The notes under the pieces were generated by a model. The model did not search any database. It had not been told where the DNA came from and saw only the letters and a program-made list of their open reading frames with translations. From contig NC_057719.1 of assembly GCF_004010195.1 (NCBI RefSeq), forward strand, positions 6,614,517 to 6,678,516: a stretch of DNA of 64,000 nt, written 5' to 3'. This stretch comes from Chiloscyllium plagiosum. Taxonomy: Eukaryota. The translations under genes were made by a program, and so were the position numbers. Of this stretch, positions 13,136 to 64,000 are shown piece after piece; the first letter of the stretch is position 1, and each line of letters starts with the position of its first letter.

Positions 13136-13441
13136 TAGATTAGATTAGATTACGTTACAGTGTGGAAACAGGCCCTTCGGCCCAACAAGTCCACACCGAC
13201 CCGCCGAAGCCTAACCCACGCATACCCCTTACCTAACACTACGGGCAATTTAGCATGGCCAATTCACCTAACCTGCACATCTTTGGACTGTGGGAGGAAA
13301 CCAGAGCACCCGGAGGAATCCCACGCAGACACGGGGAGAACGTGCAAACTCCACACAATCAGTCGCCTGAGGCGGGAATTAAACCCGGGTCTCCGGTGCT
13401 GTGAGGCAGCAGTGCTAACCATAGTGCCACCGTGCCGCCCA
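13136..13441 (-). mobile_element. HE1-type SINE, full length
   Basis: Same A/B boxes, central domain and (AATCT)n tail as the other copies. Confidence 0.9.
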
Positions 13442-14303
13442 CCAATTTTATCCACATCTATCAGTTTCACCCGTCAAAGTAGCACACTGTAAACTGAGCC
13501 CCATTGGAAGTACAAGTATAGAGTGACTGATCCACGAGGAAAATGTCTCTGATGTCATCAATGCAAAAGTTACAGCTAACAGTCGTTGCTCGCTTTCTTC
13601 AGTTGAAACTGCTTTCTTTTTAACTGCAGAGAACAGGCAGCTTCTGCTGGGGAGTACAGCATCACACCTTTCTATGTCTTGCTGTCTCACTATGTCTACA
13701 TCTCTATCATCTGTATCCAGTTCCTAACTGCTCAGTTAGGTGAGAACCAATCAGCTTCACTTGTAAAGAACTCTCCAGCTCCTGATCTCTCTGCAGAATG
13801 CAGGAACCTCTAGCCACAAAAACAGAGTTCGCAATCGAATTGAACTCCTTGCCATGAAATTATGCAGCTATCCTAGTAAATCCTGACTTTTAAAACAGGT
13901 CATTCGCCTTGCAGTCTACACTTTTTAAAAGGCGTTAAAATAAAAGGACATGATTCTCACAAGGGTTATGAGTGTTTGGAAATTGTCTTTCCCAGACAGC
14001 AGTAGAGACTGGGTCATTGAATTTATTCAAGGCAGAGTCAGATTTTTTTGATCAATGAGGAAGTAAAGGGGACAGGCCGATAGGAAAGTGGGGTTGAGGC
14101 AACAAACTGGTGAGCCATCTTATTGACTGGCGGAGACCGTTCAAGGGACAGAATGGCCTACCCCTGCTCCCAAATCCTATGTTTTGGGAGATTTGGACGA
14201 ATAGTCATAAATGTGAGTTAGTCATCACTAAATCTAGTGGGAAATTCAGCAGGACTGCCTTGCAGTCAACATCAACTTACATTCACATAGCACTTTCATC
14301 ACA

Positions 14304-14803
14304 GGGGCGGCATGGTGGCTCAGTGGTTAACACTGCTGCCTCATAGCACCAGAGTTACATAGAACATAGAACATAGAAGAATACAGCGCAGTACAGGCCC
14401 TTGGGCAGTATCCGACCATTAGCCCAGTACCCCATCTTTTTTTTATTCTTCCCAAAGTGAATCACCTCGCACTTAGCTACATTGAATTCCATCTGCCACC
14501 TTTCTGCCCAGCTCTGCAGCTTCTCTATATCCTAAATTTGCAGGTTCAAATTTTAGCCTCGGGCGACTGTCTGTGTGGAGTTTGCACATTCTCCCCGTGT
14601 CTGCGTGGGTTTCCTCCAGGTGCTCCGGTTTCCTCCCACAGTCCAAAGATGTTCCGGTCAGGTGAATTGGCCATTCTAAATTGCCCATAGTGTTGGGTGC
14701 ATTAGTTAGAGGGAAATGAGTCTGGGTGGGTTACTCTTCAGAGGGTCAGTGTGGACTTGTTGGGCCGAAGGGCCTGTTTGCACACTGTAGGTAATCTAAT
14801 CTA
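14304..14803 (+). mobile_element. HE1-type SINE interrupted by a CR1 fragment (about 14355-14540)
   Basis: Head GGGGCGGCATGGTGGCTCAGTGG, then an inverted CR1 tail (ACATAGA repeats), then the SINE resumes at GGTTCAAA. Confidence 0.85.
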
Positions 14804-19247: not shown

Positions 19248-20390
19248 ACCACACACACACACTCACACAGGCATCCTCTCAGAGACTTAGACCACTCTAC
19301 ACACACACACACCCTCTCAGAGACTCTACACTCACTCACTCACACACACACACTCACACAAGCATCCTTTCAGAGACTGAGTACACTCTACACTCACACA
19401 CACACACTCACTCACTCACACAGGCATCCTCTCAGAGACTGAGACCACTCTACACTCTCTCTCTCACACACACACACACTCACTCACTCACNNNNNNNNN
19501 NNNNNNNNNNNNNNNNNNNNNNNNNNNNNNNNNNNNNNNNNNNNNNNNNNNNNNNNNNNNNNNNNNNNNNNNNNNNNNNNNNNNNNNNNNNNNNNNNNNN
19601 NNNNNNNNNNNNNNNNNNNNNNNNNNNNNNNNNNNNNNNNNNNNNNNNNNNNNNNNNNNNNNNNNNNNNNNNNNNNNNNNNNNNNNNNNNNNNNNNNNNN
19701 NNNNNNNNNNNNNNNNNNNNNNNNNNNNNNNNNNNNNNNNNNNNNNNNNCAGACACTCACAACCCCCACCCCATACACACACACACTCACACATGCACCC
19801 CCTGACGGACTTAAGACACTTACACTCACATACACATACATATACACTCTCTCTCACATTCACAACCCCCCAACCCAGACAGACAGACACACACACACAA
19901 AGACCCACATGCACACATATACATATACGTTTGTGGGGTGAATTTGTACTTGCAGAGTTACATTGTACTTTGCTCAAAAACTGCATGAATTCATGTAAAA
20001 CTCTGTTATCTCACTTCTTAGATTAGAATCAATCTAAACATCATGGCATAGACAGAGAACACAGGGGGCTAACACCTTCAACATATTAAGTAAAAACAAT
20101 AACTGCAGATGCTGGAAACCAGATTCTGGATTAGTGGTGCTGGAAAAGCACAGCAGTTCAGGCAGCATCCGAGGAGCAGTAAAATCGACGTTTCGGGCAA
20201 AAGCCCTTCAGGAATACCTTCAACATATTGTCTAGCTAACACCAATTGTTACAGTTAACCTGAGAATGCAACTTTTAAAAAAACGTTTTGTGATTTACAC
20301 ATGAAAGAAGTAAAACTATCATGGTATTCGAATAGATGAAAGACTCAACAGGCAATCAATGTATTTTTCAATGTATAATTTCAGTTTAAC
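19248..20390 (+). repeat. CA/CT-rich compound microsatellite region, probably the 3' region of a PLE, with a gap and a nested mini-element
   Basis: (CA)n interspersed with repeated GCATCCTCTCAGAGACT. The 3' end resembles the sequence that precedes the degenerate family B hammerhead at 40500-40620. Confidence 0.55.
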
Positions 20391-22117
20391 TTTGTAGAAA
20401 TAAATGACATTGCTGCAAACTGACATTCACATACAGGTAACAGTGCCCTCCAGTGGAAATATATGGACATTCAGAAAGGAAGATGGAAATTGACACAGCT
20501 GATAGATAGAAGTACTGAGAGGCGTTTTACTGGAATGCAGTGGTATAGTGTACCTGGACTTCGAGAATGCCCTTGAGACGTTACTGCAAAGCAGACAACT
20601 GAAGAATTTACTGAATGCAGGCTATGTATAATTCTAGAAAACCCTCAGTAAGGATATCTGCTCAAAATTAACATAAATGACTTTGGATTTGGCACCAACT
20701 CTAACACTCCCTCCATCACTGACGCTCAGTCGCAGCAGTGTGTGTTATCTACAAGATGCACTTCAGAAATTCACCATTCTGACTTGGGACTATATTGCCT
20801 TCCCTTCACTGTCATTGGATCAAAATCCTGGAAGTCCCTCCCTAAGTGCTTTGTGGGTCTATCTACAGCACATGGACTGCAGCGGTTCAGGAAGGCAGCC
20901 TAGTACCACCTTCCCAAGGGTAATTCAGGATGGCAACCAACAGCATCATCCACTGTGCAAGAATGAATAAAAAAAGATCAACAATAAAGGAACATGCAAA
21001 CTCCATACAGACAGTGGCCCGAGGTGGGAATCGAACCCGGGTCCCTGGTGCAGTGAGGCAGCAGTGCTAACCACTGAGCCACCGTGCCACCCCAGGTGAT
21101 GAGACTTAAATCAGGACAGGGGTGAAAAAGTGGATTAAAAGATGGGTAGAAATGAGAAGAGAGGGTAATTGAAACAATTCCCATAGATTGAGGAGTCAAA
21201 GACATGGTCTAAAAATTAGGGCGAGACTTTGTTGGAGTGAAATTAGGAAACACTCCTTCACACAGACTGAGCAGAAATCTGGGATGGTCGTCAGTACAGA
21301 ATGTTTACGACCATGGCTTTAAATTTCGGGTCTATGCTGGTGGGAGGGTGTTTGTACCTGACAGTAAACCCAGGTGGTTTGATTGTTAGAAGGAAAGGTT
21401 GGATTTTTTTAACTGATAAGAAAGTATTTGTGCTCGGAGGCAACAAAAGCTGTCTCTCAGTTTAGACTCCGAGTCTCCCACAGTCCCAGGAAGGTGCTAA
21501 AGGCACCAGGTTCTGATCTTTACTGATCACAATATAAAATGTAGAAATGATCACAGAATGAGCAATCACTGTTGTATAAATCGTTGCAATTGTTTCAAAG
21601 TCAGTATTCTTGCTCCAGCCCTGAGTGCAAGACCAAATGCTTTTGCAACACACCTCGCTCATCAGCGATTTCCGAGTTCTGTGTTGCCAAGTGATAAACT
21701 GGTGATTTTTCAGGGCATGAGCTTCAGTGACGTGTTTCCAACTGTCACAAACTCTGTAACCAGAGGGCACAGGTTTAAAGGTAAAACAGGGTGGTGCTAT
21801 ACAAATACCTTTCATCAGATGAAAGGTCCTACCCGACTCTCCTGCTCCTCGAATGCTGCCTGACCTGCTGCGTTTTATCCAGCGCCTCACTTTATTGACC
21901 CTGACTCTCCAGCATCTGCAGTCCTCACTATCTGCTAGACAAATACCAACATATACAGACTATACTAAACTACAGAGTAAATATAGGATGAACCACAGGA
22001 GACAGAAAAATCCCTTAATCTTACCTGATAGTCCTTATGGTTTAGTATGTACTCTAAGACTCCCTAACCTCACCTCATATGAAACTCATATGAGGCTCCT
22101 TTCAGTTTCTTCCTTAC

Positions 22118-22565: not shown

Positions 22566-25239
22566 ATGAACATCGAACTTAGGAGTTGGCCAACAGGCCC
22601 TGGAGCCTGGTCCAACACTTGTTACACTTCATTGGAGCAGTATGCTCGAAATTGAGACCCCATACTCCCAGAGTCAACACAAAATTAAACTTTTTATAAG
22701 ATTGCACAAATTTACCTAGCTTTTAAACTCAGGTTGATAGAAAGCTTGAACTAAGTTTGGATATTTAACAAGAATTACAAATTATTACAATAAAATTAGA
22801 TGGCAGGTTTTGAGAAGATTTGTAGCTCAGGTTGAGGTTCTGGATGTAGGTTTGCTCGCTGAGCTGGAAGGCTCATTTTCAGATATTTTGTCACCATACT
22901 AGGTAACATCTTCAGTGAAACCAGATTGGCTTCATCCAGAGGCTCACTGAAGATATTACCAAGTAGGGTGATGAAACATCTGAAAATGAACCTTCCAGCT
23001 CAGCGAGCAAACCTACATCCAAAAAATTAGATTCTAGCTATGATGTACCATTATGAACCACTGATGTCCAACTGTACTGTCTAACCACCACCACCACACC
23101 ATCCCCCCCTCCCCCGGCCTTATAAAAGTCTCCCTGTCTCACACACAGACGACACATTAAAAACTGGGCATTACAGGTGGAGGGAAAGACTGGGTTGGCA
23201 TTCAATAGTGCCTATCCACAGGAAATTTATCCTTTTAGCTTACTACTCTTTGATTTTCCTCCTCCACTTGTTCGCAGGGGGTGCAGGGAAATTGTTTCAC
23301 AACTAAAACATCGATGACTTATTGTTTAAAGGACACAACTTACAGCAACTGAAAGGGAAAATAAACTGGCTTTCAGGGTGAAGTGTTCTTACTTCAGAGT
23401 TAAGGACTGCTCCTTCCTTAAGGACAGCTCCAACAGCTTCTGACTGAATTTTCATGTCCACAACCTTTTCAGCTACCTGAGAGCTATTCACACAGTTTTT
23501 CATAGTATCCGTCCAGTGCAGCAGCAGGCCATTCAGCCTATCGAGATCACACCAACTTTCTGAAGAGCATCTCACCATTCCCACCCCCACCCTACCCTTA
23601 TAACCCTGGCCAGTTCCCATGGCCAAACCTACACGTCTTTGGACTGTGGGAGGAAACCCACGCAGACACGGGGAGAATGTGCAAACTCCACACAGACAGT
23701 CGTATGAGAGTGGAATTAAATCTGGGTCGATGGCGCTGTGAGGCAGCAGTGCTAACCTCTGAGCCAACGGGCTGCACCATTGTTGGTAGGCAGAAAGCCT
23801 TTGCCGTTTATTGTAGAGATACGCATGATCTAGAACTCCAAGAATAACTCCAATGTTCTTTTATTCTTTTAATCCATCTGAGGGCAAACAAGGCCTCACT
23901 TTCACATCTCATTTCGAAGATCACATGTCTGACAGTGCAGCACTCTCTCAGTACCTCTCAGAACTGCAACAACTTGTGCACATGAAGCAGTCAAAATGCT
24001 TACACCTGGCTGAAAAAAGATCACATACCACACTGCAATAAATCTTGTGCCCTGGCAATGCTGAGGTCTGTAAAGCAAACAAGATCATCGGGGAGAAAGT
24101 GAGGACTGCAGATGCTGGAGATCAGAGCTGAAAATGTGTTGCTGGAAAATGGAAAAGCGCAGCAGGTCAGGCAGCATCCAAGGAGCAGGAGAATCGACGT
24201 TTCAGGCATGAGTTCTTCTTCAGAAAACCTTTTCCAGCAACACATTTTCAGCTCAAACAAGATCATCGGACATCTACAAGGACGGCAGGCAGGCTCCATG
24301 ACGCCTGGCTGAGTATTTGTGAACACTGTAGCAATAGGCAGAGTTACAGCCCCTCAGGAAAAGTGCAGACACTCTGTAATCGTCGTTGGTTTAGTTGCCT
24401 CAACAGAAAGGCAATGGGTAGAAAGTGAGGACTGCAGATGCTGGAGATCAGAGTTGAGAGAGTGGTGCTGGAAAAGCGCAGCAGGTCAGGCAGCATCCGA
24501 GGAACAGGAGAATCAATGTTTCGGGCGTAAGCTCTCCTCCTCCTCCGATGCTGCCTGACCTGCTGTGCTTTTCAACACCACTCTCCCGACTCTGATCTCC
24601 AGCATTTGCAGTCCTCACTTTCTACTAGTTGATTTTAACCTGACTGTGAAGCCTCTTCTAAGGATGCCTACCTTAAAGAAATTCTCCTCCTCTTTCTACA
24701 AGGAAGGATCTTAGTGAGTCCCTCAGTCACTGCACATCACCCCCTCCCCCCAGGTCACCTTCTCTTCCCTGCAGCTTTTCAGCCGTATTCCTGATGAAGG
24801 GCTTGTGCCCGAAACATTGATTCTCCTGCTCCTCAGAAGCTGCCTGATCTGACGTGCTTTTCCAGAAAAGCAACGGGGGGTTTGTTATAGAACATAGAAC
24901 ATTACAGCACAGCACAGGCCCTTCGGCCCTCGATGTTGCACGACCTGTGAAACCAATCTGAAGCCCATCTAATCTACACTATTCCATTTTCATCCATGTG
25001 TCTATCCAATGACTATTTAAAAGCCCCTAAAGTTGGTGAGTCTACTACTGATTCCAGACGATGTTATTATGGTAGGTCAGAGCCTGAACTAAAGTCTGGC
25101 TTGAAAGATCATATTTTCACACCTGGCTTTTGACAAGGTAAGTCTTTTACTAAAACAGAAACACACAATGCTGCAGATTCAGTTTTAACAATAGATCAGA
25201 AATCCATTACACACAAGAAGGTTTGTGGTTCCTTGATGG

Positions 25240-32500: not shown

Positions 32501-33710
32501 TGTAGGTTTGCTCGCTGAGCTGTAGGTTTGATATCCAGACGTTTCGTAACCTGGCTAGGTAACATCATCAGTGGCGACCTCCAAGTGAAGCGAAGCTGTT
32601 GTCTCCTGCTTTCTATTTATAGCTTTCTCCTGGATGGGGTTCCTGGGGTTTGTGGTGATGTCACTTCCTGTTCGTTTTCTGAGGGGTTGATAGATGGCAT
32701 CTCGATCTATGTGTTTGGAGTGCCAGGCCTCTAGGAATTCTCTGGCATGCCTTTGCTTAGCCTGTCCCAGGATAGATGTGTTGTCCCAGTCGAAATGGTG
32801 GCTTTTTGCATCCGTATGTAGGGCTACAAGGGAGAGAGGGTCGTGTCTTTTTGTGGCTAGCTGGTGTTCGTGTATCCTGGTGGCTAACTTTCTTCCTGTT
32901 TGTCCTATGTCATGTTTGTGGCAGTCCTTGCATGGAATTTTGTAGATGATGTTGGTTTTGTCCATGGGTTGTACTGGGTCTTTTAAGTTTGTTNNNNNNN
33001 NNNNNNNNNNNNNNNNNNNNNNNNNNNNNNNNNNNNNNNNNNNNNNNNNNNNNNNNNNNNNNNNNNNNNNNNNNNNNNNNNNNNNNNNNNNNNNNNNNNT
33101 GAGGAATCTGCGCACTGTATTTTTTGAGTATCCGTTCTTCTTGAATACGTTGTATAGGTGGTTCTCCTCTGCTTTGTGTAGTTTGTCTGTGCTGCAGTGT
33201 GTGGTGGCTCGTTGGGATAGTGTTCTGATACAGCTTTGTTTGTGTGTGTTGGGATGGTTGCTGGTGTAGTTAAGTATTTGGTCAGTGTTTGTTGNNNNNN
33301 NNNNNNNNNNNNNNNNNNNNNNNNNNNNNNNNNNNNNNNNNNNNNNNNNNNNNNNNNNNNNNTCCAGGAATGCGAGTTTGTTGTCAGTTTCTTCCTCCTT
33401 GCTGAACGTTATGCCTGTGAGTGTGTTGTTGATGATGTTAAATGTCTCTTCTATCTTGTAAACAAACACATAGATCTAGATGCCATCTATCAACCCCTCA
33501 GAAAATGAACAGGAAATGACATCACCACCCCATCCAGGAGAAAGATATAAATAGAAAGCAGGAGACAACAGCTTCGCTTCACTTGGAGGTCGCCACTGAT
33601 GATGTTACCTAGCCAGGTAATGAAACGTCTGGATATCAAATCTACAGCTCAGCGAGCAAACCTACACCCTAAACCTCAACCTGAGCTACAAACCTTCAAA
33701 AACCTTGCAA
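32501..33710 (-). mobile_element. Penelope-like element (RT thumb + GIY-YIG) with inverted pseudo-LTRs
   Basis: ORF motifs TDQILNYTSNHPNTHK and NIIYKIPCKDCHKHDIGQTGRKLATRIHEH (GIY-YIG). 32501-32730 and 33461-33670 are inverted copies of each other, each with a hammerhead core. Confidence 0.9.
33593..33632 (+). ncRNA. Minimal hammerhead ribozyme motif (family C) in a PLE terminus
   Basis: cca-CTGATGA-t-GTTACCT(agcc)AGGTAAT-GAAA-CG-TC-tgg. An inverted twin lies on the minus strand at 32535-32574. Confidence 0.78.
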
Positions 33711-38307: not shown

Positions 38308-38941
38308 TATAATGCAGTGACCAGAACTGCACGCAATACTCCAAGTGCAGCATGACCTCATGATTCCGAAACTCGATTCCTCTACTAATAAAAGCTAATA
38401 CACCGTATGCCTTCTTAACAGACCTATCAACCTGGGTGGCAACTTAGAGGGATTCTATGTACATGGACATCAAGATCTCTCTGCTCATCTACACTACAAA
38501 GAATCTTACCGTTGGCCCAGTACTCTGCATTCCTGTTAGTCCTTCCAAAGTGAATCACCTCACACTTGTCCGCATTAAACTCCATTTGCCACATCTCAGC
38601 TCAGCTCTGCAGCTTATCTATGTCCCTCTGTAACCTACAACATCCTTTGGCACTATCCACAACTGTACCGACCTTAGTGTCATCCGCAAATTTACTAACC
38701 CATCCTTCTACACCCTCATACAGGTCGTTGATAAAAATGACAAACAGTAGTGGCCCCAAAACAGATCCTTGTGGTACACCACTAGTAACTGAACTCCAGG
38801 ATGAACATTTTCAATCAACCACCACCCTCTGTCTTCTTTCAGTTAGACAATTCCTGATCCAAACTGCTAAATCGCACTCAATCCCACACCTCTGTATTTT
38901 GTGCAGTACCTACCGTGGGGTACCTTAACAAACTTTCCTCA

Positions 38942-38975
38942 TTCCTGAAGAAGGGCTTATGCCCGAAACGTCGAT
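38942..38975 (+). ncRNA. Minimal hammerhead ribozyme motif (family A)
   Basis: ttc-CTGAAGA-a-GGGC(ttat)GCCC-GAAA-CG-TC-gat. Confidence 0.75.
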
Positions 38976-39529
38976 TCTCCTGTTCCCTGGATGCTGCCTG
39001 ACCTGCTGCGTTTTTCCAGCAACACATTTTCAGCTCTGATCTCCAGCATCTGCAGACCTCACTTTCTCCACTTTTACCTTAACAAATGCCTTACTGAAAT
39101 CCATATACACCACTTCAATGGCTTTACCCTCACCCACCTGTTTAGTCATCTTCTCAAAGAACTCAGTAAGGTTTGTGAGGCAATAATGACTGCGTTTAAC
39201 TGGTATTTCTTTCAGTTTGGTGAAACCCCTGCTCTGCTGCAATTGGGGCTGGGAGTGGGACTGAAGACTGTTGTGGTCCTGAGGCATCAGACTGCCGCTG
39301 GTCTAATTAAAACTAGGAATCTGGCTTTGCCCTGGAATGGGCGCAGCATTAGCTACCTGGAGTCAATCAGAAATAATGGGTACCCTTTCCAATTTGTGTA
39401 CTGTACATCAACACCGATCGTCCAAGAACTTCAACTAACAACCCCATTTCTGCGTCTCTCTCTCCAGAAGCCAATTATTAAACAGCGGACAGTCACTGCC
39501 TGGTGCAGTACATTTAGTGCCCTGAACTG

Positions 39530-41099: not shown

Positions 41100-44000
41100 C
41101 TTCAATCACTGATAAAAAACTTAAAGGTTGATAGATAGTAAGAGCTTCTATGAAATTTAACGGAGACTTAATAAAGTGAGCATTGGCCGTTTGAGAAAGC
41201 TGATTAATAATGGAAATAAGGAAATGGCAGATGAATGTAGCAGATGTTTTGTATCAGTCTTCACTATGGTGGATACAAGTAATATTCCAGAAGCAACCAG
41301 TAAATCAGGAAATTGAAGGAGGGAAAACTCAGGAACCGCACATTCATCGGTGAGGTGGTACTGAGTAAATTATTGGATCAGTGGCAGATGAATGCCTTGG
41401 TTCCGATGGACTTCATCTGAGGGACTTAAAAAAAAATTAGCTATTGAAATAGTTGATGTGTTGGTTTTAATTTTCAAAAATCCCTTAATTAAGGGAAAGT
41501 CCACTAGATTGGAAGATAGCAAATTCCAATCCTTTATTTGAAAAGGGAGACAGAAAGCCAGAAACAACAGGCCAGTTTGCATAATATCTATCACAGGGAA
41601 AATGTTGGAAGTTGTTATTAAATAAGTTATAACAGGGCACTTGCATAAATTCAGGGTTATTGGACAAAGTCAACATGATTTTGTGAAAGCAAAATCATGT
41701 TTGACCTATCTTTTGGAGTTCTCTGAAAAGATCACATATGCTATTGATAAAAGGGAATTGGTGGATGCGTTGGACTTGGATTTCCAGAAGGCATACGATA
41801 AGGTGCCACATCATAGGTTATTGTGGAAAATAAACTCCGATGGTGTAGGTGGTAACATGTTGGCTTGGATAAAAGACAGGCTAGCTAATGTGAACCAGAA
41901 AGAAGTTTTTTTTTCAAGCTGATAGCATGTCATGATTGGTGTGTGACAGGGGTCAATGATGGGGCTTCAACTTTTACAGTTTATATGAATGATTTTGATG
42001 AAGGGGCCATCGATGTGGTTGTTGATAATAAGAAGATAGATAATAATGTAAGTTGTGAAGAGGACATGAGGGATTACAAAAAGTTATTGATAGGTTCAGT
42101 GAGAGGGCAAAGATGTGGTGAATGGAGTAATGTTCAAAAAATACAGAATTATCAATTTGGCAGGAAGTTATAGAGAAAGCATTTAATCTAAATAGTGAGA
42201 GATTACAGAGCTCAGAAATGCAGAGGGATATAGGTGTCCTTGTGTATAAAATACAGAAGATTAGTATGCAGATACAGCAAGTAATTCGGAAAGCTAATCT
42301 CAGATTAAGATAAATGCTCGGCACAACATCGTGGGCCAAAGGGCCTATACTGTGCTGTACTGTTCTATGTTCTGATAGAATGTTATCATTTGTTGAGAAG
42401 GGAACAAAAGTGGAGAGATTATGCTTTAGTTATTCAGTCATGATTTGGAGGTGCCAGTGTTGGACTGGTGTGAAGAAAGTCAGAAGTCACCCAACACCAG
42501 GTTATAATCCCAACAGGTTTATTTTAAATCATAAGCTTTCGGAACGCTGCTCCTTCATCAGGTGAAGTCACTCTACAAAGGAGCAGCACTCTGAAAGCTT
42601 GTGATTTCAAATAAACCTGCTGGATTTTAATCTGGTGTCTTGTGACTTCTGACCCACTTAAATAGGGCAATGCCAAGACTGCATCTGGAGTAATGTGTAT
42701 AATATTGGTCAGGAAGGATGTAAATATGTTAGGGGCAGTTCAGAGGTTTACCAAATAACTGGAGTGAAACGATTATCTTATGAGGAAAGGATGGAGAGAC
42801 TAGGCTTGAATCTACTCAGGTTTAGAAGAGCAGGAGGTGACTTGATTGAAACATATCAGTTCCTAAAGCGTTGCAGTAGATTGGATGTGGAGACGATGTT
42901 TCTTCTTAAGGGAGAATGTAGAACTAGGTGACACTGTTTAAAAATCAGGGGTCACATTTAAAACAGAGGTAAGGCAATTTTTTTCTCTGAGAGGATTATG
43001 AGTAATACTCGTCCTGAAAAGTTGGCGGAAGCTAAGTCATAGAGTTTTACAGCACAGAAATAAACCTTTCAGTCCAACTTGTCACATTGACCAGATATCC
43101 CAATCTGACCTAGTCCCATTTGCCATATCCCTCTCAACCCTTCCTATTCATATACCCATTCAGGTGCCTTTTAAATGTTATAATTGTACAGGCCTCCACC
43201 ATTTCATCTAGCAACTCATTCTATGCATGCAACACCCTCTACGTGAAAAAGTTGCCCCTTAGGTCTCTTTTAAATCTTTCCCCTTTCACCTCAATCCTAT
43301 GTCCTGTTGTTTTGGACTTTCCTACCCAGGCAAAAGACCTTGTCTATTTACCCTATCCATGTCCCTCAGATTTTTAAACTTCTATAAGGTCACCCCTCAG
43401 CTTCTGACGGTCCAAGGAAAATAGCCTCAGCCTATTCAGCCTCTCCATATTAGCTCAAACCTTCCACCCGACAATATTCTTGTAAATCTTTTCTACACCC
43501 TGTCAAGTTTAATAACATCTTTTTTATAGCAAGGGGACCAGAATTAAAACCAGTATTCCAAAAGTGGCCTAACCAATGTCCTGTACAACTGCAACATGAC
43601 AACTCAACTCCTGCATTCAATGCGCTGACCAGTAAAGGTAATTGTACCAAATTCATTCTTAACTACCCTGTCTAACTGAGACCCCACTTGCAAGGAACTA
43701 TGAACCTGTACCCAAAGGTTTCTTTGTTCAGCAGAAAAACCCCAGAAGACTACCATTAAGTGTATGTGTCTTGCCCTGATTTGCCTTACCAAAATACAAC
43801 ACCTCAGATGTATCTAAATTAAACTCTATCTTTTAAGATCCCATTATATTCTGAGGTTACCTTCTTCGTTGTCCAATACACCACCAGTTTTGGTGTCATA
43901 TGCAAACTTACTAACTATTCTTCCTATACTCATATCCAAATCGTTTATATCAATGACAAATATAGTCAGTATATTTCTCATTTCTTGGTAACACAAGTAG

Positions 44001-50011: not shown

Positions 50012-53000
50012 GTCAGAAGTCACAACACCAGGTTAGAGTCCAAGAGGTTTATTTGAAATCACAAGTTTTTGGAGTGCTGCTGCTTCGTCAGGTGAGGTGG
50101 AGGGAAACACATGGCACAGAATTTATAGACAGAGAGATCAACAGATAGTACAAATACTGTGAGTGGAGCGTTGACAGGCTGAATACAAGTCTTTGCAGGT
50201 GATCAAAAGTGTCAGACTGTGTGAGTAAAGTGTCAAAAGATGAATAGCGAGTGAAGAGATTATCCTGAATCTGATTAATTGAGGAAGAGAGATAATTACA
50301 AAAAGGTAAAAATAAGATGGTGCTGGAGACAAACCAAATGGTTGGAATTACATGATAGATGTAAGAGCCACATGCTGAGGGTCTAACCAAAGTAACAAGT
50401 AATCCAAAACCCGACAAACTAATGTAGGAACATTACCAGTTATCGAGGTGATTGTGACAAAACAGACAAGTAAGGAAGATACAGAACAGTATCATGGCGT
50501 GACTTGTATTGTAGCGTGACATCAACTCACAATCGCAGTTCAGGCCATCTTCATGGGTATGGAACTTGGCTTTCAGTTTCTGTTTGGCGATTCTGCATTG
50601 TTGTGTATCTCTAAGGCTGCCTTGGAGGATGCTTACCCAAAGATCGGAGGCTTGAATGTCTTTGACCGCTGAAGTGTTCCCCAACTGGGAGGGAACACTC
50701 CTTTCTGGCAATTGTTGCATTGTGTCCATTTATCCGTTACCATAACATCTACATGGTCTCACCAATTTACCATGCCTTGAGACATCCTTGCCTGCAGCAT
50801 ATGAGGTAGACAATGAGATTGGCTGAATCACATGAGTATCTGCCACGTACGTGGTGGGTGGTGTTCCCACATGTGATAGTAGTATCCAAGTCAATGATCT
50901 GGCATGTCTTAGAGGTTTCCATGGCACAGTTGTATGGTGTTGTGGTCGATGTTGCCCTGAAGGCTGGGTAGTTTGCTGCAAATGATCGTCTGCTTAAGGT
51001 AAGGCAGTTGTATGAAGGCGAGAAGTAGTGGTGTCAGGATGATTTTAACGAGATGGTCATATTGATGACATGTTGGAACATCTCGCTAAGGTCATCTATA
51101 CACCATCATTTCTGGCTCAAACAACTGCCTGACCTGAAACAGACCATCATTGGCAGCAAACTACACAGCCTTCGGGACAACATCGACCACAACACAACAC
51201 AACCCTGCCACGGCAATCTCTACAAGACATGCCAGATCATCAACACAGATGCTACTATTACATGTGGGAACACCACTCACCACATACCAGATCCTCTTGT
51301 GACTTGGCCAATGTTGTTTGCCTCATACGTTGCAGGCAAGGATGCCCTGAGGCACGGTACATTGGTGAGACCATGCAGATGCTACAGCAGCGGATGAATG
51401 GACACCATACAATTGCCAGACAGGAATGTTCCCTCCCAATCAGGGAACACCTTCAGTGGTCAAAGACATTCAGCTTCTGATCTTTGGGTAACCATCCTCC
51501 AAGATAGCCTTTGAGATACACAATAATGCAGAATCTCTGAACAGAAACAGATAGTAAAGTTCCATACCCATGAAGATGGCCTCAACCATTATCTTGGGGT
51601 TAATGTCATACTACATGTAACCCCACCATACTGTTCTGTATCTGTAAATATTTTCTTTCTTGTCTGTATTGGCACCATCATCTTGATAACTTATGATCTC
51701 TCTCTCTACCTTCGTTTGTAGGGTTTTGGGTTACTTGTCACTTTGGTTAGGTCCTTGGCACAGGACCCTTATACCTGTCATGTAATTCCAGACATTTAGT
51801 TTGTCTCCAGCACTATCTTTTAATTTTTTTTCTAATTATCTCTCTGTCTCAATTAATCACATTATAGGTCATCCCTTTACTTGCAGAGGCTTGTTATTAA
51901 GCCTGTTAACACTCCACTCACGACATTTGTATGATCTTTTGATCCCTCTGCTTATAAATACTGTGCCAGTGTGCTTCCCTCCACTTCACCTGACAAAGCT
52001 CCGAAAGCTTGTGATTTCAAATAAACCTGCTGTAGAGTCAGATGTACAGCACAGAAATAGACCCTTTGGTCCAAGCCGACCAGATATCCTAACCTAATCT
52101 AGTCCCATTTGTCAGTATTTGGCCCAGATCCCTCTAACCCCTTCCTATTCATATACTCATCCAGATGCCTTTTAAATGTTGCAATTATACCAGCCTCCAC
52201 CACTTCCTCTGGCAGCACATTCCATACAAACACCACCTTCTGTGTGAAAAGGTTTTCCCTTGGGTCCCTTGTAAATCTTTCACCTCTCACCTTAAACCTA
52301 CGCCCTCTAGTTCTGGACTCCCCCAACCCACAGAAAAGATCATGTTTACTTACCCTATCGATACCCCTCTCATGGTTTTATAAACACTCATTTCCGATGT
52401 CCATGGAAAATAGCTCCAGCCTGTTCAGCCTCCCCCTATAGATCAAACCTCTGACAATGTCCTTGTAAGTCTTTTCTGAACCCTTTCTAGTTTCACTACA
52501 TCATTCCAAAGCATTGAGACCAGAATTGCATGCAGTATTCCAAAAGTGGCCTAACCAATGTCCTGGGCAGCTACAACATTTCCTCCCAACGCCTGTACTC
52601 AATATACTGATCAATAAAAGAAAGCATACCAAACGCTACCTTCACTATTCTATCTACCGGTGACTCCACTTTCAAGAAACCATGAACTTACACTCCAAGG
52701 TCTCTTTGTTCAGCAACGCTCCCCAGGACCTTAACCATTAAGTGTATAAGTCCTGCTCTGATTTGCCTTTCTAAGATACAGCGCCTCACATTTATCCAAA
52801 TTAAACTCCATCTGCCACGCATTGGCCTATTGACCCATCTGAGCTGAAAATGTGTCGCTGGAAAAGCACAGCAGGTCAGGCAGCATCCAAGGAACAGGAG
52901 AATCGACGTTTTGGGCATGAGCCCTTCTTCAGGAAGAAGGGTTCCTGAAGAAGGGCTCATGCCCGAAACGTCGATTTCCTGCTCCTTGGATGCTGCCTGA

Positions 53001-53250
53001 CCTGCTGCGCTTTTCCAGCAACACATTTTCAGCTCTGATCTCCAGCATCTGCAAGCCCTCACTTTCTCCTATTGACCCATCTGATCAAGATCCTGTTGTA
53101 CTCCAAGGTAACTTTCTTCGCTGTCCACTACACCTCCAAGTCTTGGTGTCATCTGCAAATTTGCTAACCATACCTCTTATGTTAGACTATAACCTGGTGT
53201 CCTGTGACTTCTGACCTTGTCCACCACAGTCCAACATGGGCATGTTCTAA
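50012..53250. mobile_element. Inverted pair of Penelope-like GIY-YIG fragments (about 1 kb arms); right arm interrupted by a CR1 (about 52031-53180)
   Basis: NVVCLIRCRQGCPEARYIGETMQMLQQRMNGH on plus (51229-51480), with the homologous sequence on minus at 50430-51050. Terminal GTCAGAAGTCAC (50012) and GTGACTTCTGAC (about 53204). Confidence 0.8.
52942..52975 (+). ncRNA. Minimal hammerhead ribozyme motif (family A)
   Basis: ttc-CTGAAGA-a-GGGC(tcat)GCCC-GAAA-CG-TC-gat. Confidence 0.75.
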
Positions 53251-55859: not shown

Positions 55860-58170
55860 TGATGCTCCAGGGAAAACAGCCCCAGCCTATTTAATCTCTC
55901 CCTGTAGCTCAAATCCTCCAACCCTGGCAACACCCTTGTAAATCTTTTCTGAACCCTATCACTTTTCACAACATGCTTCCAATAGGAAGGAGACCAGAAG
56001 TGCACACAATATTCTAACAGTGGCCTAACCAATGTCCTTTACAGCTGCAACATGACCTCCCAGCTCCTGTACTCAATGCTCTGACCAATAAAGGAAAGCA
56101 TAGCAAATGCCTTCTTCACTATCCTATCTACCTGCGACTCTACTTTCAAGGAACTACTTTCAACCTGCACTTCAAGGTCTCTTTGTTCAACAACACTCCC
56201 CAAGACCTTACCATTAAGTGTATAAGTCCTGTTAAGATTTGCTTTCCCAAAATGCAGCACCTCTCATTTATTTAAATTAAACTCCATCTGCTACTCCTCA
56301 GCCCATTGGCCATCTGGTCCAGATCCTGTTGTAATCTGAGGTAACCTCCTTTGCTGTCCAGTACACCTTCAATTTTGGTGTCATCTGCAAACTTACTAAC
56401 TATACCCTTACGCTCACATCCAAATCATTTATATAAATGAGGAAAAGTATTGGACGCAACACCGATCCTTGTGGGACTCCACTGGTCACAGGCCTCCAGC
56501 CCTCCACCACCACCCTGACTTGGTGTCAAAATAGAAGGGGGATGCTGAAAGCAGGCAAACTATCCAGTAACTAGTGATAAACTGTAAATGTTAACCTCAC
56601 TGTGCAGCAATATAGAGGCCCCGACTAACATTGCACGTATTGGTTCAATTCTGATTTGGTTAAAACGTGATTCACTCTGGAATTTTAGACTGGCTATGGT
56701 GCCATCAAACTACTATCAATTGTCTTTTTATTTTTTAAAAGTGAAAACATCTGGTTCCCATATGCCCTCCAGAGGGGAAAACAATGTTCCCTTGCCTGAC
56801 CTGGCCTACATGCCAAAAGCCGCCTTCACTGCCCCATCGACCTGTAACTTTACTTCCACAGGACCGTACACTTGAACTCCAAAATCCCTCTGTTCCACTA
56901 AATTCCTTAAGGCCCTACCATTCACCATGAAACTCCTACCCTGATTTGACTTTCTAAAATCCAAGACCTCACACTTATAACTCCATTGCCATTTCTCAGC
57001 CCAGTTCCCCAGCTGATCGAGGTCCTGCTGCAACTTCTGATGACCTTCCTCACTGTCCATGATACCCACCCATTTTAGTGTAATCTGCAAATTTACTAAT
57101 CATGCCTTGTGCATTCTCATCCAACTCATTGATACAAACACCAATAAGTTTGTTACTGGAGTTTTCAAACTCAACACACACAACTTTTTTAATGTTTACC
57201 AATATCAGGATTCTAACTTAGGAAATCTTGGATATTGTTCTCAAGATTTGTGAGGATATAAATAGGAGACTATAACTTTTATACTTGTGCAGTGGACTAG
57301 ATTGAGTGAAGTGTAGGTAGAGTGCTACTTCACCTGGAAGGTGTGTTTGGGCCCTTGGATACAAATTTAAAAATCTGTTTACCTTCCCCTTAAATGTGTT
57401 CAGTGCCCCGGGCCCATTGCACTCTGGGCGAGTGAATTCCGTGAAGAATTCACAAGAATACAAATTCAAGGGCAAAAGCTGCATGAGAGGACAGTGCTGA
57501 TTAGTTGGCTGATCTGACTCCCTGTTTGTATTGCTTTTCAAGACTTATGGTCTGTTCCTGTGGTAGTCTGAGTTTTCTTTGTCTGTTGTAGGTTGAGTGT
57601 TTGAGCTTTGACTGGTTTTGCAGTCAGGTGTGTTTTAATGAGGAAAGATTGAGCAGTTTAGGCCTATACTCACTAATAGGAGGTAAAAACAATGACTGCA
57701 GATGTGGGAAACCAGATTCTGGATTAGTGTTGCTGGAAGAGCACAGCAGTTCAGGGAGCATCCAAGGAGCTTCGAAATCGATGTTTCGGGCAAAAGCCCT
57801 TCATCAGGAGATGAAGGGCTTTTGCCCGAAACGTCGATTTTGAAGCTCCTTGGATGCTGCCTGAACTGCTGTGCTCTTCCAGCACCACTAATCCAGACTC
57901 TATACTCACTAATGTTGAGAAGGATGAGAGGAGATCTAATTGAGATCTTTCAAATGCTAAAGGGGATTAACAAAATGAATGGTTTCCCTGTGGGTTAATC
58001 CAGAAAGAGAGGTCATAATTTGAGGTTAAGAAGTGGCAGATTTTAAAAAAAAAATGAGGAGGAATTACTTCTCTTAAAGGGTTGTGAATTTGTAGAATTC
58101 ACTTGCTTAGAGTGCAATGGGTCCAGGGCACCGAACACATTTAAGGGGAAGGTAAACAGATTTTAAAATT
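55860..58170. mobile_element. CR1 fragments (- 55860-56515, - 56800-57130, + 57630-58170)
   Basis: VRPLLEYCVHFWSP, LHFGKAN...EQRDL and RRMRGDLIE motifs. Further CR1 3' fragments at 48020-48585, 61135-61355 and 63590-64000. Confidence 0.82.
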
Positions 58171-58174
58171 TGTA

Positions 58175-58855
58175 TCCAAGGGCCCAAACACACCTTCCAG
58201 GTGAAGTAGCACTTTACCTGCACTTCACTCAATCTAGTCCACTGCATTCACTGCTCATAATGTGCTCTCCTGTACATTGGGTTCACAGAACACCTATGGT
58301 CTGTCCTCATAAAAGACCCTGAGAGGCTGGTTACCTGCCACTTCAACGCACCACCTTGTTCCCTGATCAACATCCCCATCTCAGACTTGATGCAGTGCTC
58401 CAGTGAAGATCAGTGCAAGCTGGAAGAACGGCACTTAGGTTTCCGCTTGGGAGTTCTAAGGCCTTCTGAACTCAAAGCAAATTCAACAATTTTAGGCTTC
58501 AGTCACCTTCTCACAAGTCCTTACCCCAACTCCACACGGCAGGCCTTATCATATGGTCTGCTGTTACACACAGCCCATTGTTAGCCACTAATAATTCCCA
58601 TTAGCAGCTATTCGTTCTCCTGGGCTGACCATTATCCACTCGTTTTTCTGTACAATTGTTCTTCTGTCTTTAGGCGTTCTCGCCACTATCATTGACTTCC
58701 CACCCCACCTTATTTTCAGCCTTTTCTGAGCTACCATCAATTCTAAGGAAGTCACTGGACCCGAAATGTTAAATCTGATTTCTCTCCACAGTTGCTGCCA
58801 GACTTGCTGAGATTTCTGTTTTTTGTTTCTGATTTCCGCATTGGCAGTTTCTTTT
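58175..58855 (+). mobile_element. Decayed Penelope-like fragment inserted in a CR1
   Basis: GIY-YIG remnant (GPKHTFQV, LLYIG, KLEERHLGFRLG) and a degenerate hammerhead terminus at about 58740-58845. Confidence 0.7.
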
Positions 58856-60139
58856 TTAAATTAGTAATGGGGTGAAAGATTATGGGGAGCAGGTAGGAAA
58901 GTGGAGTTGAGGCCGAGATGAGATTAGCCATGATCATATTAAATGGTGGAGCAGGCTCAAGGGGCTGAATTGCCTGTTCCTGCTCTTTGTTTTTAAGTTT
59001 TTCCTGTCTGATTCTGTCGCAGGTGTTTGGCTACCATCCAGCTGTGAGGCTTTTAAGGTTCTGAGCATTTCTGTACAGTATTTTCGTTCAGATGCTTGGC
59101 ATGTAGTCAAATGCTGCTTGTAAAGCATTTTATTTCCATTAATTCCTATTAACTTAAACAACATCTTTAATTTCTTCATTACATTGGTCACTTCCTTTAC
59201 TGTGTATAAATCATGGAATTGTAGCAACCACGCGATGAGGCCACTTGGCCCATCAAGTAAGTACTATATATGCTGATCCATTCGCCCCATTGTAGAAGGT
59301 CTTCCCGGAAAAAAAATTATAAATGTTTCATATTGCAAGCTCCAGAAGTATTTTTAAATGAATCTCGTGTTCTTCCAACATCCCTCCCCTGTGAAAATCA
59401 AATTGTCTGATCTCCAATCCATTCTTAATTATTGATGGTTTGAATCATTCTCCCGTGTCTTGTTCTTCCAATGTGATCTTTTCATTAACCTTTTAGACAA
59501 TCCCTTAACTCTGTCTTGATGCCTCTGTGAGATAATTTGTTGTTGGGTCCCTCTCTTTCTTCCCAGTTTTCCTCATTGGCCAGACCTGTAATTCTCTGCG
59601 GCAGCCTCTTGCTGCCTTGCTTCCAATCCTTGAAGAACAACCTTGCTTCTGAAACTGGACAAAATTTAAAAGAGTTGCCTTTTCTGCTGTCGTAACCTCA
59701 CAGCCAGTGAAATGGTCACTATCTGCCACATTTCCTATGTGAAAACGATCTGCTGAAAAATCCCACAAAAGAACATTGGCAGAGCAATGAATCATAAAAT
59801 TTATACAGCACAAAAATCAGGCCCTTTGGCCCATCCTGTCTGGGCTGGTCGTCAAGCATGTATCTATTCTAATCACTAATGGCAATGGAGAGAGATTGGG
59901 GGGAAAGTCTTACTAATTGGATATCTTACTTGAAGAACCAGCCCAGAATGAGCTAAATAGCTACCTCCTCTTTTGTATGATCAAGATTCTTGATCAAAAT
60001 ACACCTTCAAAAGGTACCTGGAGCATGAAGCAATCTTTTGATATTTTGGGGGAGGGTTTGTACTGTTTGGATTTCATGTGAGCTGTTTTTACTTGGCTCT
60101 AGTTGAAGATGATTTTGTTTTTCCTTTTAAATAAATCAG

Positions 60140-60235: not shown

Positions 60236-61567
60236 GTAACAGTGCTGCATCCGAATGATTCAGTCAAGCTTGTTTAAACCTGGCTTTAAAATGTCCTACC
60301 AGCTGTGACTCAAAGGATAGCGTTCATGCATCTGCCCCTGGAGGTTGTGGGTTCAAACCCCCAGCCAGGGTCTTGACCATAAAATATCAGGCCAACTCAG
60401 TGCTGATGCCAAGAATGAATCTGTAGGAACTGCTAAACTATCAAATGTAATACCTGTGGAAGGTTGTCACAGGCTGAGTCTTCTCTATTCTCTGTAATTC
60501 AGGACTGATCATGTGCAGTCACTTTTTAAAATCCGTTTTTGCTCCATAATTCCTTGATTGTAGAATCCTTCAGTACAGAAGAGCCCTTTAGCCCATCCAG
60601 TCTGTACTTACATTAGTCCCATTTTTGCTACACTAGGTTCATACCCTCAAATGTTATGACACTTCACGAGTCCATCCAAGTACTCTTTAAGGATTGCGAG
60701 GTTTCCTGCCTCAGCTATATTTCCAGGCATTTCATTTCAGGCCCCCACCACCCTCTGAGTGAAAACATTTTTCCTCAACTCCCCTCTAAGCCTGCTGCCT
60801 TTCACTTTAAAATTATGTTCCTTAGTACTTACCCTTCTACTAATGGGTACAGCTACTTAATAGTCACCTGTCCATCCCCTCATAATGTTATACCCCTCAG
60901 TTAGGTCCCCCCTCAACCTTCTCTGCTCCAAAGTAAAAAAAACTCTAACTTATCCAACCTCTATTCAGCTTCATTGCTGAAATGCTGCAAACCAGGCACC
61001 AGCCTGATGCCCTCCAGTCCGATCACATCCTCCTGACAATGTTATGACCAGAACTGCACACAGTTGGGCCACACGGGTGTCAAGCAATGACCATCTCTAA
61101 CAGATAATCTAGCTATTGCCCCTTGACATTCAAGAGTCATAGAGATGTACAACATGGAAACAGACCCTACGGTCCAACCTTTCCATGCCAACCAGATATC
61201 CCAACCCAATCTAGTCCCACCTGTCAGCACCCGGCCCATATCCCTCCAAACCCTTCCTATTCATATACCCATCCAAATGCCTCTTAAATGTTGCAACTGT
61301 ACCAACCTCCACCACATCCTCTGGCAGGTCATTCCATACATGTACCACCCTCTGTGAATAAAGAAATTATACAGTCACCACGGATACTACATCAGGGAAA
61401 ATCCTTGGCTTGTGCATCAGTTTGATCCACTTCGCAGGAAGACATGCATTCTATTTCTAATAGCACCTATGAGGAAGTGGGGTGTGGATTCACAGGAAAT
61501 TTTGGAGCTTAGGGCTGAGCTGTCTGAAGGCAGACAGTGGTGGAGTGATTTCAAATCAGACTTGTTC

Positions 61568-62515
61568 GAAGTTTGTGAGAAGATTTGTAGCTCGGGTGCT
61601 CGTTGTTGTGGTTCTGTTCGCCAAGCTGGGAATTTGTGTTGCAAACGTTGTAGTGTACAAAAATCCCATGCAAGGACTGCACAAAACACTACATAGGACA
61701 AACAGGAAGACAGCTAATGATCCGCATCCATGAACACCAACTAGCCACAAAACAACACGACCAGCTATCCTTAGTAGCCACACACGCAGATGACAAGCAA
61801 CATGAATTCAACTGGGACGACACTACTATTATAGGACAAGAGCTGAAAATGTGTTGCTGGAAAAGCGCAGCAGGTCAGGCAGCATCCAACGAACAGGAGA
61901 ATCGACGTTTTGGGCATGAGCCCTTCTTCAGGAATGAGGAAAGTGTGCCCAGCAGGCTAAGATAAAAGGTAGGGAGGAGGGACTTGGGGGAGGGGCGTTG
62001 GAAATGCGATAGGTGGAGGGAGGTCAAGGTGAGGGTGATAGGCCGGAGTGGGGGTGGGGCAGAGAGGTCAGGAAGAAGATTGCAGGTTAGGAAGGCGGTG
62101 CTGAGTTCGAGGGATTTGACTGAGACAAGGTGGGGGGAGGGGAAATGAGGAAACTGGAGAAATCTGAGTTCATCCCTTGTGGTTGGAGGGTTCCTAGGCG
62201 GAACATGAGGTGTTCTTCCTCCAGCCGTCGTGTTGCTATGGTCTGGCGATGGAAAGCCTAACCGAGAACAGCCAGGGAATTCCTAGAGGTATGGCACTCA
62301 TCCACAGATTCAATCAATTAGCACATCGATCTGGACCCAATATACTGGCCACTGCAACGGACAGCTAGAACTGACAACCAGAAACGGCAGATACAAATCA
62401 CTACAAATGGTGGAGGAAAGATCACAGAAGCGCTTCACAGGAGGATGTCACCTAGACAGGGGACGAAACGTCTTCAACACAAATTCCCAGCTCGGCGAAC
62501 AGAACCACAACAACA
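61568..62515 (+). mobile_element. Penelope-like fragment with inverted ends and a nested minus-strand PLE fragment (about 61840-62250)
   Basis: VVYKNPC..C.KHYIGQTGR..IRIHEHQLA motif. GTTGTTGTGGTTCTGTTCGCC (about 61601) and GGCGAACAGAACCACAACAAC (about 62494) are inverted termini. Confidence 0.82.
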
Positions 62516-64000
62516 GACTTGTTCGAGTTGGAGAGTACAAAGGTATGGAATGAGATAGAGACTATAGAAGGATTTGGAAGCACGGACATGAATTTTAAAA
62601 CAGAGGCATTACTGGATCAGGAGTGTGTGCCAGTTAGTGAGCACAGAAACCCAGAGTTGTTACAGTGCTGAAGCAGGCCATTCAGCGCATCGTGACTGCA
62701 CCGTGGAGGTGAAGACTGATTCCAGTTTCGGCAGCAGAGCCTTGGATGAATTCTTGTTTGTGGAGTGTGTTGGAATTGAAACTCTGTTGCATTGAGATCA
62801 ATCCCTCACTCCCTTTTTCCATGAGGCTGGATCAGAGCTGAGTTCGCAAAAGATGGTTTGATGAATTTGTTTTGGACAGCAGATGGCAGCCTCTCACTTC
62901 TGTCAAAGTGGAAGTTAGGTTCTAATTGAGAAGCCTCTGAGCAAGATCTTGCATTTTATCAATAGGACAAGTGAAGATTATTCATGGGCTGCTTCCCTCC
63001 TGTTATTAATTTTTGAATAGACCCATCAAATTTCAAATCCAATGTTGATCTTGCTATTTGCAACCTCTGCAGCCAAACTTTGTATTTCTCGCTCTGTTGT
63101 ATCATCCTATGATCTTTGTATGTTACGATCTGTCTGTACTGCATGCAAAACAAAGCTTTTCACTGTACCTAGGTACATGTGACAATAATAAATCAAATCA
63201 AAACAAAAGAGTTGGGACTGCGCAGCAGCCTGAAGATCCTTCGCAACAACAACATTCCGATTGGCTGATTGTATGTTGTCCCAAAGTGTGTCACAGGAGT
63301 GTCATCAGACACATTTTGACACTGAGCAATGTGTGACAACAGTGCCAAGTGCCCAGAAACCTGGGGAAAGAGCAGGGTTTATGCATTTTCGGGGAACCCA
63401 TTGATAAAAGCACAGCCATCAGTGGTGAAGCAATTAAAATCTGGAATATACTAAACCTGGAGGGAAGCAGAGATTCTTGAGGGGTTTGCAAGCAATGAAG
63501 AGAATTTGTAAATTGAACCATTGGTGTACTGGGAGTCAGTGCACAGATTTCCTGTGTATTCGTTCAGGGAATGTGACAAGGCCAGTGTTTATTGGGTGAG
63601 GCCACTTATCGAATACTGCGTACAATTCTGGTCATCCTGCTCTGTGAAGGAGAATACAGAAAAGATTTACAAGGATCTTGCCGGCATTGGAGGGTATGAG
63701 CTATTGGAAGAGGTTGAATAGGCTGGGCTCCCCCCCCCCCCCCAGTCGAGTGTCAGAGGCTCAGGGGTGACCTCCTAGAAGTTTATAAAATCATGAGGGG
63801 TATGGATAGGTCTCTTTTCCAGGGTAGGGGACTCCAAAACTAGAGGACATAGGGGTAAGGCGAGAGGGGAAAGATTTAAAAAGGACCTGAGGGGTCTTCA
63901 CACAGAGGGTGGTGTGTGTATGGAATGAGCTGCCAGAGAAAGTGGTGTAGACTTGTACAATTACAACATTTAAAAGGCATCTGGATGAGTATATGAATAG

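Follow-up and report, generated by a model that had tools for sequence, protein, structure and literature searches.

Insertions of EN+ Penelope-like elements (PLEs) are described as carrying an inverted 5'-truncated pseudo-LTR (pLTR), an optional tail of 30-40 bp and a target-site duplication (TSD) (PMC3846280; PMC8557442), and the latter source calls the origin of the inverted pLTRs and tails undefined (PMC8557442). A purified anole PLE protein cuts and extends both strands in vitro, from two start sites on the RNA between which the tail lies; AT-rich DNA is its preferred target, and it works without cleavage by the ribozyme (PMC11167929). Minimal PLE hammerheads of type I, first detected with a custom descriptor, are marked by an extra nucleotide between 9 and 10.1, by G10.1-C11.1 and by a palindromic 15.2-16.2, the ACGU palindrome likely serving dimerisation (PMC4209133). 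The same source attributes to truncated PLEs the dual minimal hammerheads of Schistosoma, which lie on opposite strands 100-700 bp apart (PMC4209133). Retrozymes are head-to-tail tandem repeats with same-strand ribozymes, from which circular RNA is released (PMC7229834; bioRxiv 10.64898/2026.07.22.740005).

The insert considered in this study lies in a stretch of 64,000 nt from the shark Chiloscyllium plagiosum (hereafter the window, whose positions are used throughout). Its parts are as follows.

57610..58140 (limits approximate), + strand: host, a decayed LINE 3' fragment carrying the focal insertion; frame restored on removal
57664..57677, + strand: left TSD, CTATACTCACTAAT; exact repeat, single copy in the empty alleles
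57678..57713 (36 nt, or up to 40 nt), - strand: unpaired tail that prolongs the long arm at its 3' side; unmatched in the right arm; the same stretch ends the single-arm sibling 20088-20215
57714..57809, - strand: long arm, a putative PLE pLTR end with its sense on the - strand; 5' end 2 nt upstream of hammerhead C3
57777..57807, - strand: minimal type I hammerhead remnant, layout as in PMC4209133; CUGAUGA-A-GGGC(UUUU)GCCC-GAAAC intact, cleavage triplet GUC turned into AUC by a G>A change in CpG context at 57782
57806..57809, no strand: AGGA, the unpaired 4-nt centre; the arms meet head to head between 57809 and 57810
57810..57899, + strand: short arm, the same putative pLTR end with its sense on the + strand; starts within the core without C3-U4, retains GAAACGUC, ends at the tail boundary
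57900..57913, + strand: right TSD, CTATACTCACTAAT; exact repeat

Like the EN+ PLE insertions represented by Pen2a_Av of Adineta (PMC3846280) and by the scheme of PMC8557442, the focal insert combines head-to-head inverted pLTRs, a one-sided tail of 30-40 bp, a TSD, a junction palindrome and a minimal hammerhead within the pLTR. Unlike Pen2a_Av, its copies are truncated to 132 nt (long arm with tail) and 90 nt (short arm) and contain neither an ORF nor a direct-repeat pLTR, and its TSD measures 14 bp compared with 8-10 bp in Adineta (PMC3846280). By four tested features, namely the inverted pLTR, the tail, the TSD and a minimal hammerhead that is complete in relatives, the focal insert classes as an extreme PLE complex insertion. 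It also resembles Poseidon_Ac (PAc) of Anolis carolinensis, as described in vitro, in the tail, in the AT-rich target (71% AT here) and in copies that do not begin at the hammerhead cleavage site; the cutting and extension of both strands by PAc, with two reverse-transcription (RT) start sites bounding the tail, can be likened to the origin proposed below (PMC11167929). The PAc ORF starts at stem II, and the same frame in the focal arm stops after 17 codons; joined inverted products do not figure in the account of PAc used here (PMC11167929).

As with the dual hammerheads of Schistosoma (PMC4209133), two PLE minimal type I motifs occur in opposite orientation, but in the focal insert they abut directly and both are damaged. 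With animal non-LTR retrozymes the insert shares a non-coding nature, the 150-450-bp scale, a type I hammerhead, a long TSD and, putatively, PLE pLTR ancestry (PMC7229834; bioRxiv 10.64898/2026.07.22.740005). Unlike retrozymes it is arranged head to head, not in tandem, and has no intact ribozyme; a search of 56000-60000 returned no tandem array and thus no head-to-tail arrangement of the retrozyme kind. MITEs of cut-and-paste DNA transposons are short, non-coding, hairpin-forming and TSD-flanked, as is the focal insert. Unlike MITEs, the insert has termini without mutual inverted repeats (36-40 nt being unpaired), sibling TSDs ranging from 10 to 17 bp and arms apparently taken from a retroelement end, and no homogeneous family was seen within the window. 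No description of such palindromic stumps in sharks was found in the literature searched, for the most part the main texts of open-access papers.

An asymmetric palindrome with a target-site duplication and empty alleles

The arms of the inverted repeat (57714-57805 against 57810-57901) span 92 nt at 95% identity, with 84 of 88 positions identical in the arm core. The first-pass annotation had extended the inverted repeat over the whole of 57678-57899; the first 36-40 nt have no partner in the right arm, so the palindrome is smaller than the insert and is confined to 57714-57901. Its placing of an AGGA centre near 57807 was accurate, the centre being 57806-57809. Two of the four internal arm differences fall in CpG and two outside it, and if the insertion is as old as the split between organisms A and B (see below), the probability of at least two non-CpG differences is 0.43. 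The hairpin predicted for the insert has a free energy of -181.4 kcal/mol (z -24), and none of 200 shuffles was equally stable.

The repeats at 57664-57677 and 57900-57913 are identical and enclose exactly 222 bp, in agreement with the perfect 14-bp TSD and the insert length first proposed. Contigs from four public runs (X1, X5, X6 and X12) were aligned on window 57150-58450, and in three of the four (X5, X6 and X12) position 57663 is joined straight to 57900. The 14-mer is single in all three; a doubled 14-mer in such empty alleles, which had been named as the finding that would refute an insertion, is therefore not the case. The empty-allele contig of X5 (organism A) shows no difference from the window in 287 nt, and those of X6 and X12 (two samples of organism B) show six differences in 362 nt. 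The 222-bp piece is a true insertion, absent from the same site in other individuals, and the empty site also supports the earlier description of a single insertion event without coding capacity. To gauge chance, 19,175 random pairs of 60-nt windows were taken at a spacing of 236 nt; a 14-mer was common to 178 of them, a figure that the empty site renders moot.

The insertion is probably polymorphic within the source species, since organism A, whose site is empty in X5, is also the organism whose runs match the window best. The X1 contig reaches into the element's right end by 24 letters, compared with a bridging threshold of 31, and this overlap gives a hint only of a filled allele in X1. Over 57876-58043 the X1 contig differs from the window in four letters, including 57974 A>G as in organism B, unlike the X5 empty allele, which equals the window sequence. 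These X1 differences may represent an old polymorphism or a mosaic assembly.

The host is a decayed LINE fragment that we take to be CR1-like. Removal of the insert and one repeat restores one frame, ...LSSLGLYSLMLRRMRGDLIEIFQMLKG..., which reads LGLYSLMLRRMRGDLIEIFQMLKG; this part of the earlier claim of a restored CR1 frame held, and the CR1 identity did not gain support, as the 26-aa host piece had no match when searched against Pfam. An inverted duplication (57288-57453 / 58081-58246; 152 nt, 94%) flanks the LINE fragment on both sides and copies the junction of LINE-side sequence with a decayed GIY-YIG-like PLE fragment. Both of its copies are covered by organism B contigs, so the duplication is older than the focal insertion. 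Two other inverted structures were observed elsewhere in the window: a large decayed palindrome at 50314-51819, some 1.5 kb in length (arms 81-88% complementary, centre about 51016-51116), and inverted arms of 150 nt (89%) lying 1168 nt apart at 13231-14698, with an inner 50-nt pair.

Shared end points, variable junctions and damaged hammerheads

Eight inverted PLE-end insertions, the focal one included, were compared within the 64-kb window. Five of them combine a TSD with a one-sided tail of 32-40 nt, and these come from two repeat groups, every insertion having a centre of its own.

57678-57899: focal inverted insertion; TSD 14 bp; tail 36-40 nt, left only
52843-53067: inverted insertion; TSD 17 bp; tail 34 nt, right-hand
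24092-24253: inverted insertion; TSD 16 bp; tail 32 nt
22802-23022: inverted insertion; TSD 10 bp; tail 39 nt
61570-62513 (61557-62526 with TSDs): inverted insertion of the second PLE group; TSD 13 bp; tail 33 nt

The other three (24.5k, 42.5k and 32.5k) showed no clear TSD. The short arm of 24092-24253 consists of only the 25 nt adjoining the tail boundary, and in 61570-62513 a tailed arm of 80 nt stands beside a much longer one. Several of these insertions have features of their own. The GAAGGG centre of 52843-53067 (52936-52941) looks as if a brief fold-back had been aborted and a second cDNA then added, so that a single junction would record both mechanisms; the 61557-62526 insertion has, nested within it at about 61839-62250, an opposite-strand copy of the first group. 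Inverted PLE-end insertions of other groups, in which stem II of the hammerhead has a different sequence, lie at 32501-33666, 22802-23022 and 42470-42670, and the 32501-33666 copy holds GIY-YIG-like coding remains, two assembly gaps and an 886-nt centre.

Compared with the window by BLAST, the insert yielded 25 rows. Its nearest relative there, at 20088-20215 (90% over 121 nt), has one arm only, with a tail and a separate 14-bp TSD. This copy of the focal subfamily (20074-20229 with its 14-bp TSD) has a 3-nt deletion in the CUGAUGA core and stops 4 nt upstream of C3. A decayed single-arm copy at 21795-21947 has a 15-bp TSD with one mismatch, and GATGA is the start of its main arm, as it is of the focal short arm; at its 5' end, 21808-21826 forms a 9-bp mirror with a 1-nt centre.

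The ends of the insert belong to a very high-copy repeat. Contig depth summed over the insert is 0.49-6.9 million compared with about 4-14 on unique flank bins, a difference of some five orders of magnitude that is to be read qualitatively only. Related contigs were aligned at 88% likeness and therefore include other subfamilies. At 57896-57897 they pass from the short arm into a mixture of flanks in X1 (180 contigs), X6 (108) and X12 (89 and 241), and at 57889 among the rows listed for X5; they leave the long arm at 57809 in all four runs (415, 250, 448 and 418 contigs), mostly continuing ATGA(G). When copy 38900-39068 was the query, six of 16 BLAST rows began upstream of hammerhead C3 by 3-4 nt, compared with 2 nt for the end of the focal long arm. 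The predicted cleavage site is 28 nt further along; one BLAST row starts there (21834), and the TSD of the copy behind it places the true start further upstream. End points of the repeat are thus common to its copies, and the junctions differ. The regular 5' stop near C3 may be due to RT stalling at the small hairpin or to a discrete short RNA.

Neither hammerhead of the insert is intact. The core pattern CTGANGA..GAAA occurs only on the - strand at 57807, where GAAAC-ATC replaces GAAAC-GTC and both the GUC triplet and the ACGU palindrome are gone; the + strand arm begins at GATGA, two bases into the core and without the CU of CUGAUGA. Of the double hammerhead proposed by the first-pass annotation, what remains is that both arms carry hammerhead sequence, one lacking C3-U4 and the other having an altered GUC. 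Complete minimal type I hammerheads occur in related copies at 24791 (with ACAT for ACGT), 38945, 52945 and 55639, and both cores are lost at 24420-24630. An Rfam search across the window at E<=1 gave 11 matches with no hammerhead among them. MicroRNA-precursor Rfam matches on the palindromes were far below gathering scores and were rejected. As the two motifs lie on opposite strands, only one is in sense per RNA, and opening a hammerhead core against the long hairpin would cost about 32 kcal/mol (-164.1 vs -131.9). A transcript through the insert is predicted to fold as one long hairpin hiding both damaged ribozymes; given such folding, and since nothing is encoded, the insert is likely to be a dead end.

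The derivation of the focal arms from a PLE is indirect, being indicated by hammerhead type, architecture and a tblastn link to a GIY-YIG-like fragment. A copy of about 80% identity at 61839-62230 continues into a peptide like the end of the GIY-YIG-like fragment of the window at 58180-58509 (tblastn E 0.001). The possible ORF of the focal group, searched as two short pieces against proteins, gave nothing at E<=0.001, and an atlas search with focal-group pieces gave no usable match; these blanks say little for or against a PLE origin. Three pieces including that of the host matched no Pfam family (none of three), nor did the GIY-YIG-like piece; one of the two proteins in the set holding the latter matched Pfam RVT_1. 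The parent of an EN+ PLE insertion is expected to encode a telomerase-like reverse transcriptase with a GIY-YIG endonuclease at its C-terminus. Proteins bearing RT and GIY-YIG domains are indeed linked to a sister group of the same layout (22.9k, 32.5k and 61.6k), with 36 protein matches at E<=0.001, the closest named matches from carpet sharks and atlas GIY-YIG clusters at 0.93. The focal family may be Neptune-like.

Origin of the head-to-head arms

The insert appears to be one insertion of two non-coding, high-copy PLE ends joined head to head, and priming from both cut strands is moderately likely to have produced it. The GIY-YIG endonuclease of an autonomous PLE would nick both strands of an AT-rich site with a 14-nt stagger. 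From one 3'-OH, reverse transcription would begin at the distal of the two RNA start sites and yield the long arm with its tail; from the other it would begin at the proximal site and yield the short arm. Both cDNAs would halt where the hammerhead begins on its 5' side, which is the preferred stop of the repeat, and their ends would be joined, probably with the aid of the TCAT/ATGA micro-palindrome that adjoins the ribozyme core, and gaps filled. The product would have no ORF and encode nothing. The extreme product of two-ended PLE target priming envisaged in the first-pass annotation fits the one-sided tail, the end at a hot spot common to hundreds of related contigs and the siblings with other junctions. 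The in vitro evidence for such priming comes from the lizard Poseidon element, another family than the focal repeat (PMC11167929). The indirectness of the PLE link and the three siblings with no clear TSD also weigh against this reading.

The same PLE origin and one-off insertion could instead have involved a fold-back, in which the first cDNA primed itself at the TCAT/ATGA micro-palindrome and was copied back, the endonuclease then cutting at the tail boundary; this is possible but doubtful. The 4-nt loop centre, with GATGA pairing with TCATC, agrees with it, and related copies mostly continue CAGGA-ATGAG, which can fold in this way to a product one G shorter than observed; that the focal junction is a single G off the product expected from one folded cDNA counts against two-ended priming. 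So do the short fold-back-like stretches in siblings at 21808-21826 and 52936-52941, which resemble aborted fold-backs. Self-priming has been proposed for palindromes at inverted PLE junctions in PMC3846280, and the tail has been attributed to endonuclease resolution in PMC8557442. Against fold-back, the in vitro account has both strands extended and the tail as the distance between two RT starts (PMC11167929). Fold-back also leaves unexplained siblings 24092-24253 and 61570-62513, whose short arms never reach the junction mirror and therefore favour two priming events over a mirror copy begun at the junction, and the second arm of 52843-53067 has TTCCT beyond the fold-back point. The four differences in 88 arm positions, two of them non-CpG, compared with a flank equal to the X5 empty allele over 287 nt, lean weakly towards two templates (p about 0.055).

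It is very unlikely that the 222-nt palindrome is a self-propagating non-autonomous family, MITE-like or retrozyme-like, transcribed and re-inserted whole by PLE enzymes. Five siblings do have a similar total size of 201-225 bp (focal, 52.9k, 24.5k, 22.9k and 42.5k, with approximate limits for the two without a TSD), a likeness that fixed starts and a preferred stop would also give, and pLTRs are enough in cis for mobilisation in trans according to PMC3846280. However, the focal centre and junction were found in none of the seven other inverted insertions of the 64-kb window, and among the 15 joints listed, with 432 more beyond the list, all 11 that fall inside the element differ. The closest relative in the window, moreover, is the single-armed 20088-20215, and neither ribozyme is intact. 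The earlier reading of a MITE-like self-propagating ribozyme element is not supported, in view of the non-inverted termini and variable sibling TSDs noted above, the junction without a second copy in the window and the ribozyme damage. Long inverted repeats are prone to deletion, and a longer inverted PLE insertion might have lost its middle afterwards through a hairpin or cruciform, leaving two ends. The window does hold longer inverted insertions (32501-33666 and 61570-62513) and one copy, 24420-24630, without both cores; but single-arm copies bounded by a TSD have the same stop (20215 directly adjoins the TSD there), which argues that the stop was made at insertion, and there is no longer allele among the contig pieces listed. 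Later deletion is accordingly judged just as improbable as a self-propagating family.

In place of the full-length PLE transcript, the RNA copied in two-ended priming could have been a discrete one of some 130 nt, with its start 2-4 nt ahead of the hammerhead core and its end at the tail. This SINE-like, ribozyme-headed mini-template would have been copied twice by a dimeric PLE enzyme, once per cut strand, a suggestion that is speculative and on balance unlikely.

Meaning of the insert for PLE biology

The focal insert is best seen as a footprint of the usual kind left by a known element; that it is a new self-copying ribozyme is improbable. As a single locus it is of little weight, being an ORF-less stump of a known retrotransposon class within another dead repeat. 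The verified empty site is the new contribution, by which the cut positions and both end points of the focal copy are known exactly, and this makes the copy useful as a specimen. Presence/absence alleles of this kind are usable as population markers. If the mini-template of about 130 nt were true, the huge set of such stumps, some with empty alleles extant, would record in vivo how PLEs stagger their cuts, choose start sites and join ends. A census of these stumps across the genome could separate two-ended priming from fold-back and explain the stop at the hammerhead's 5' edge.
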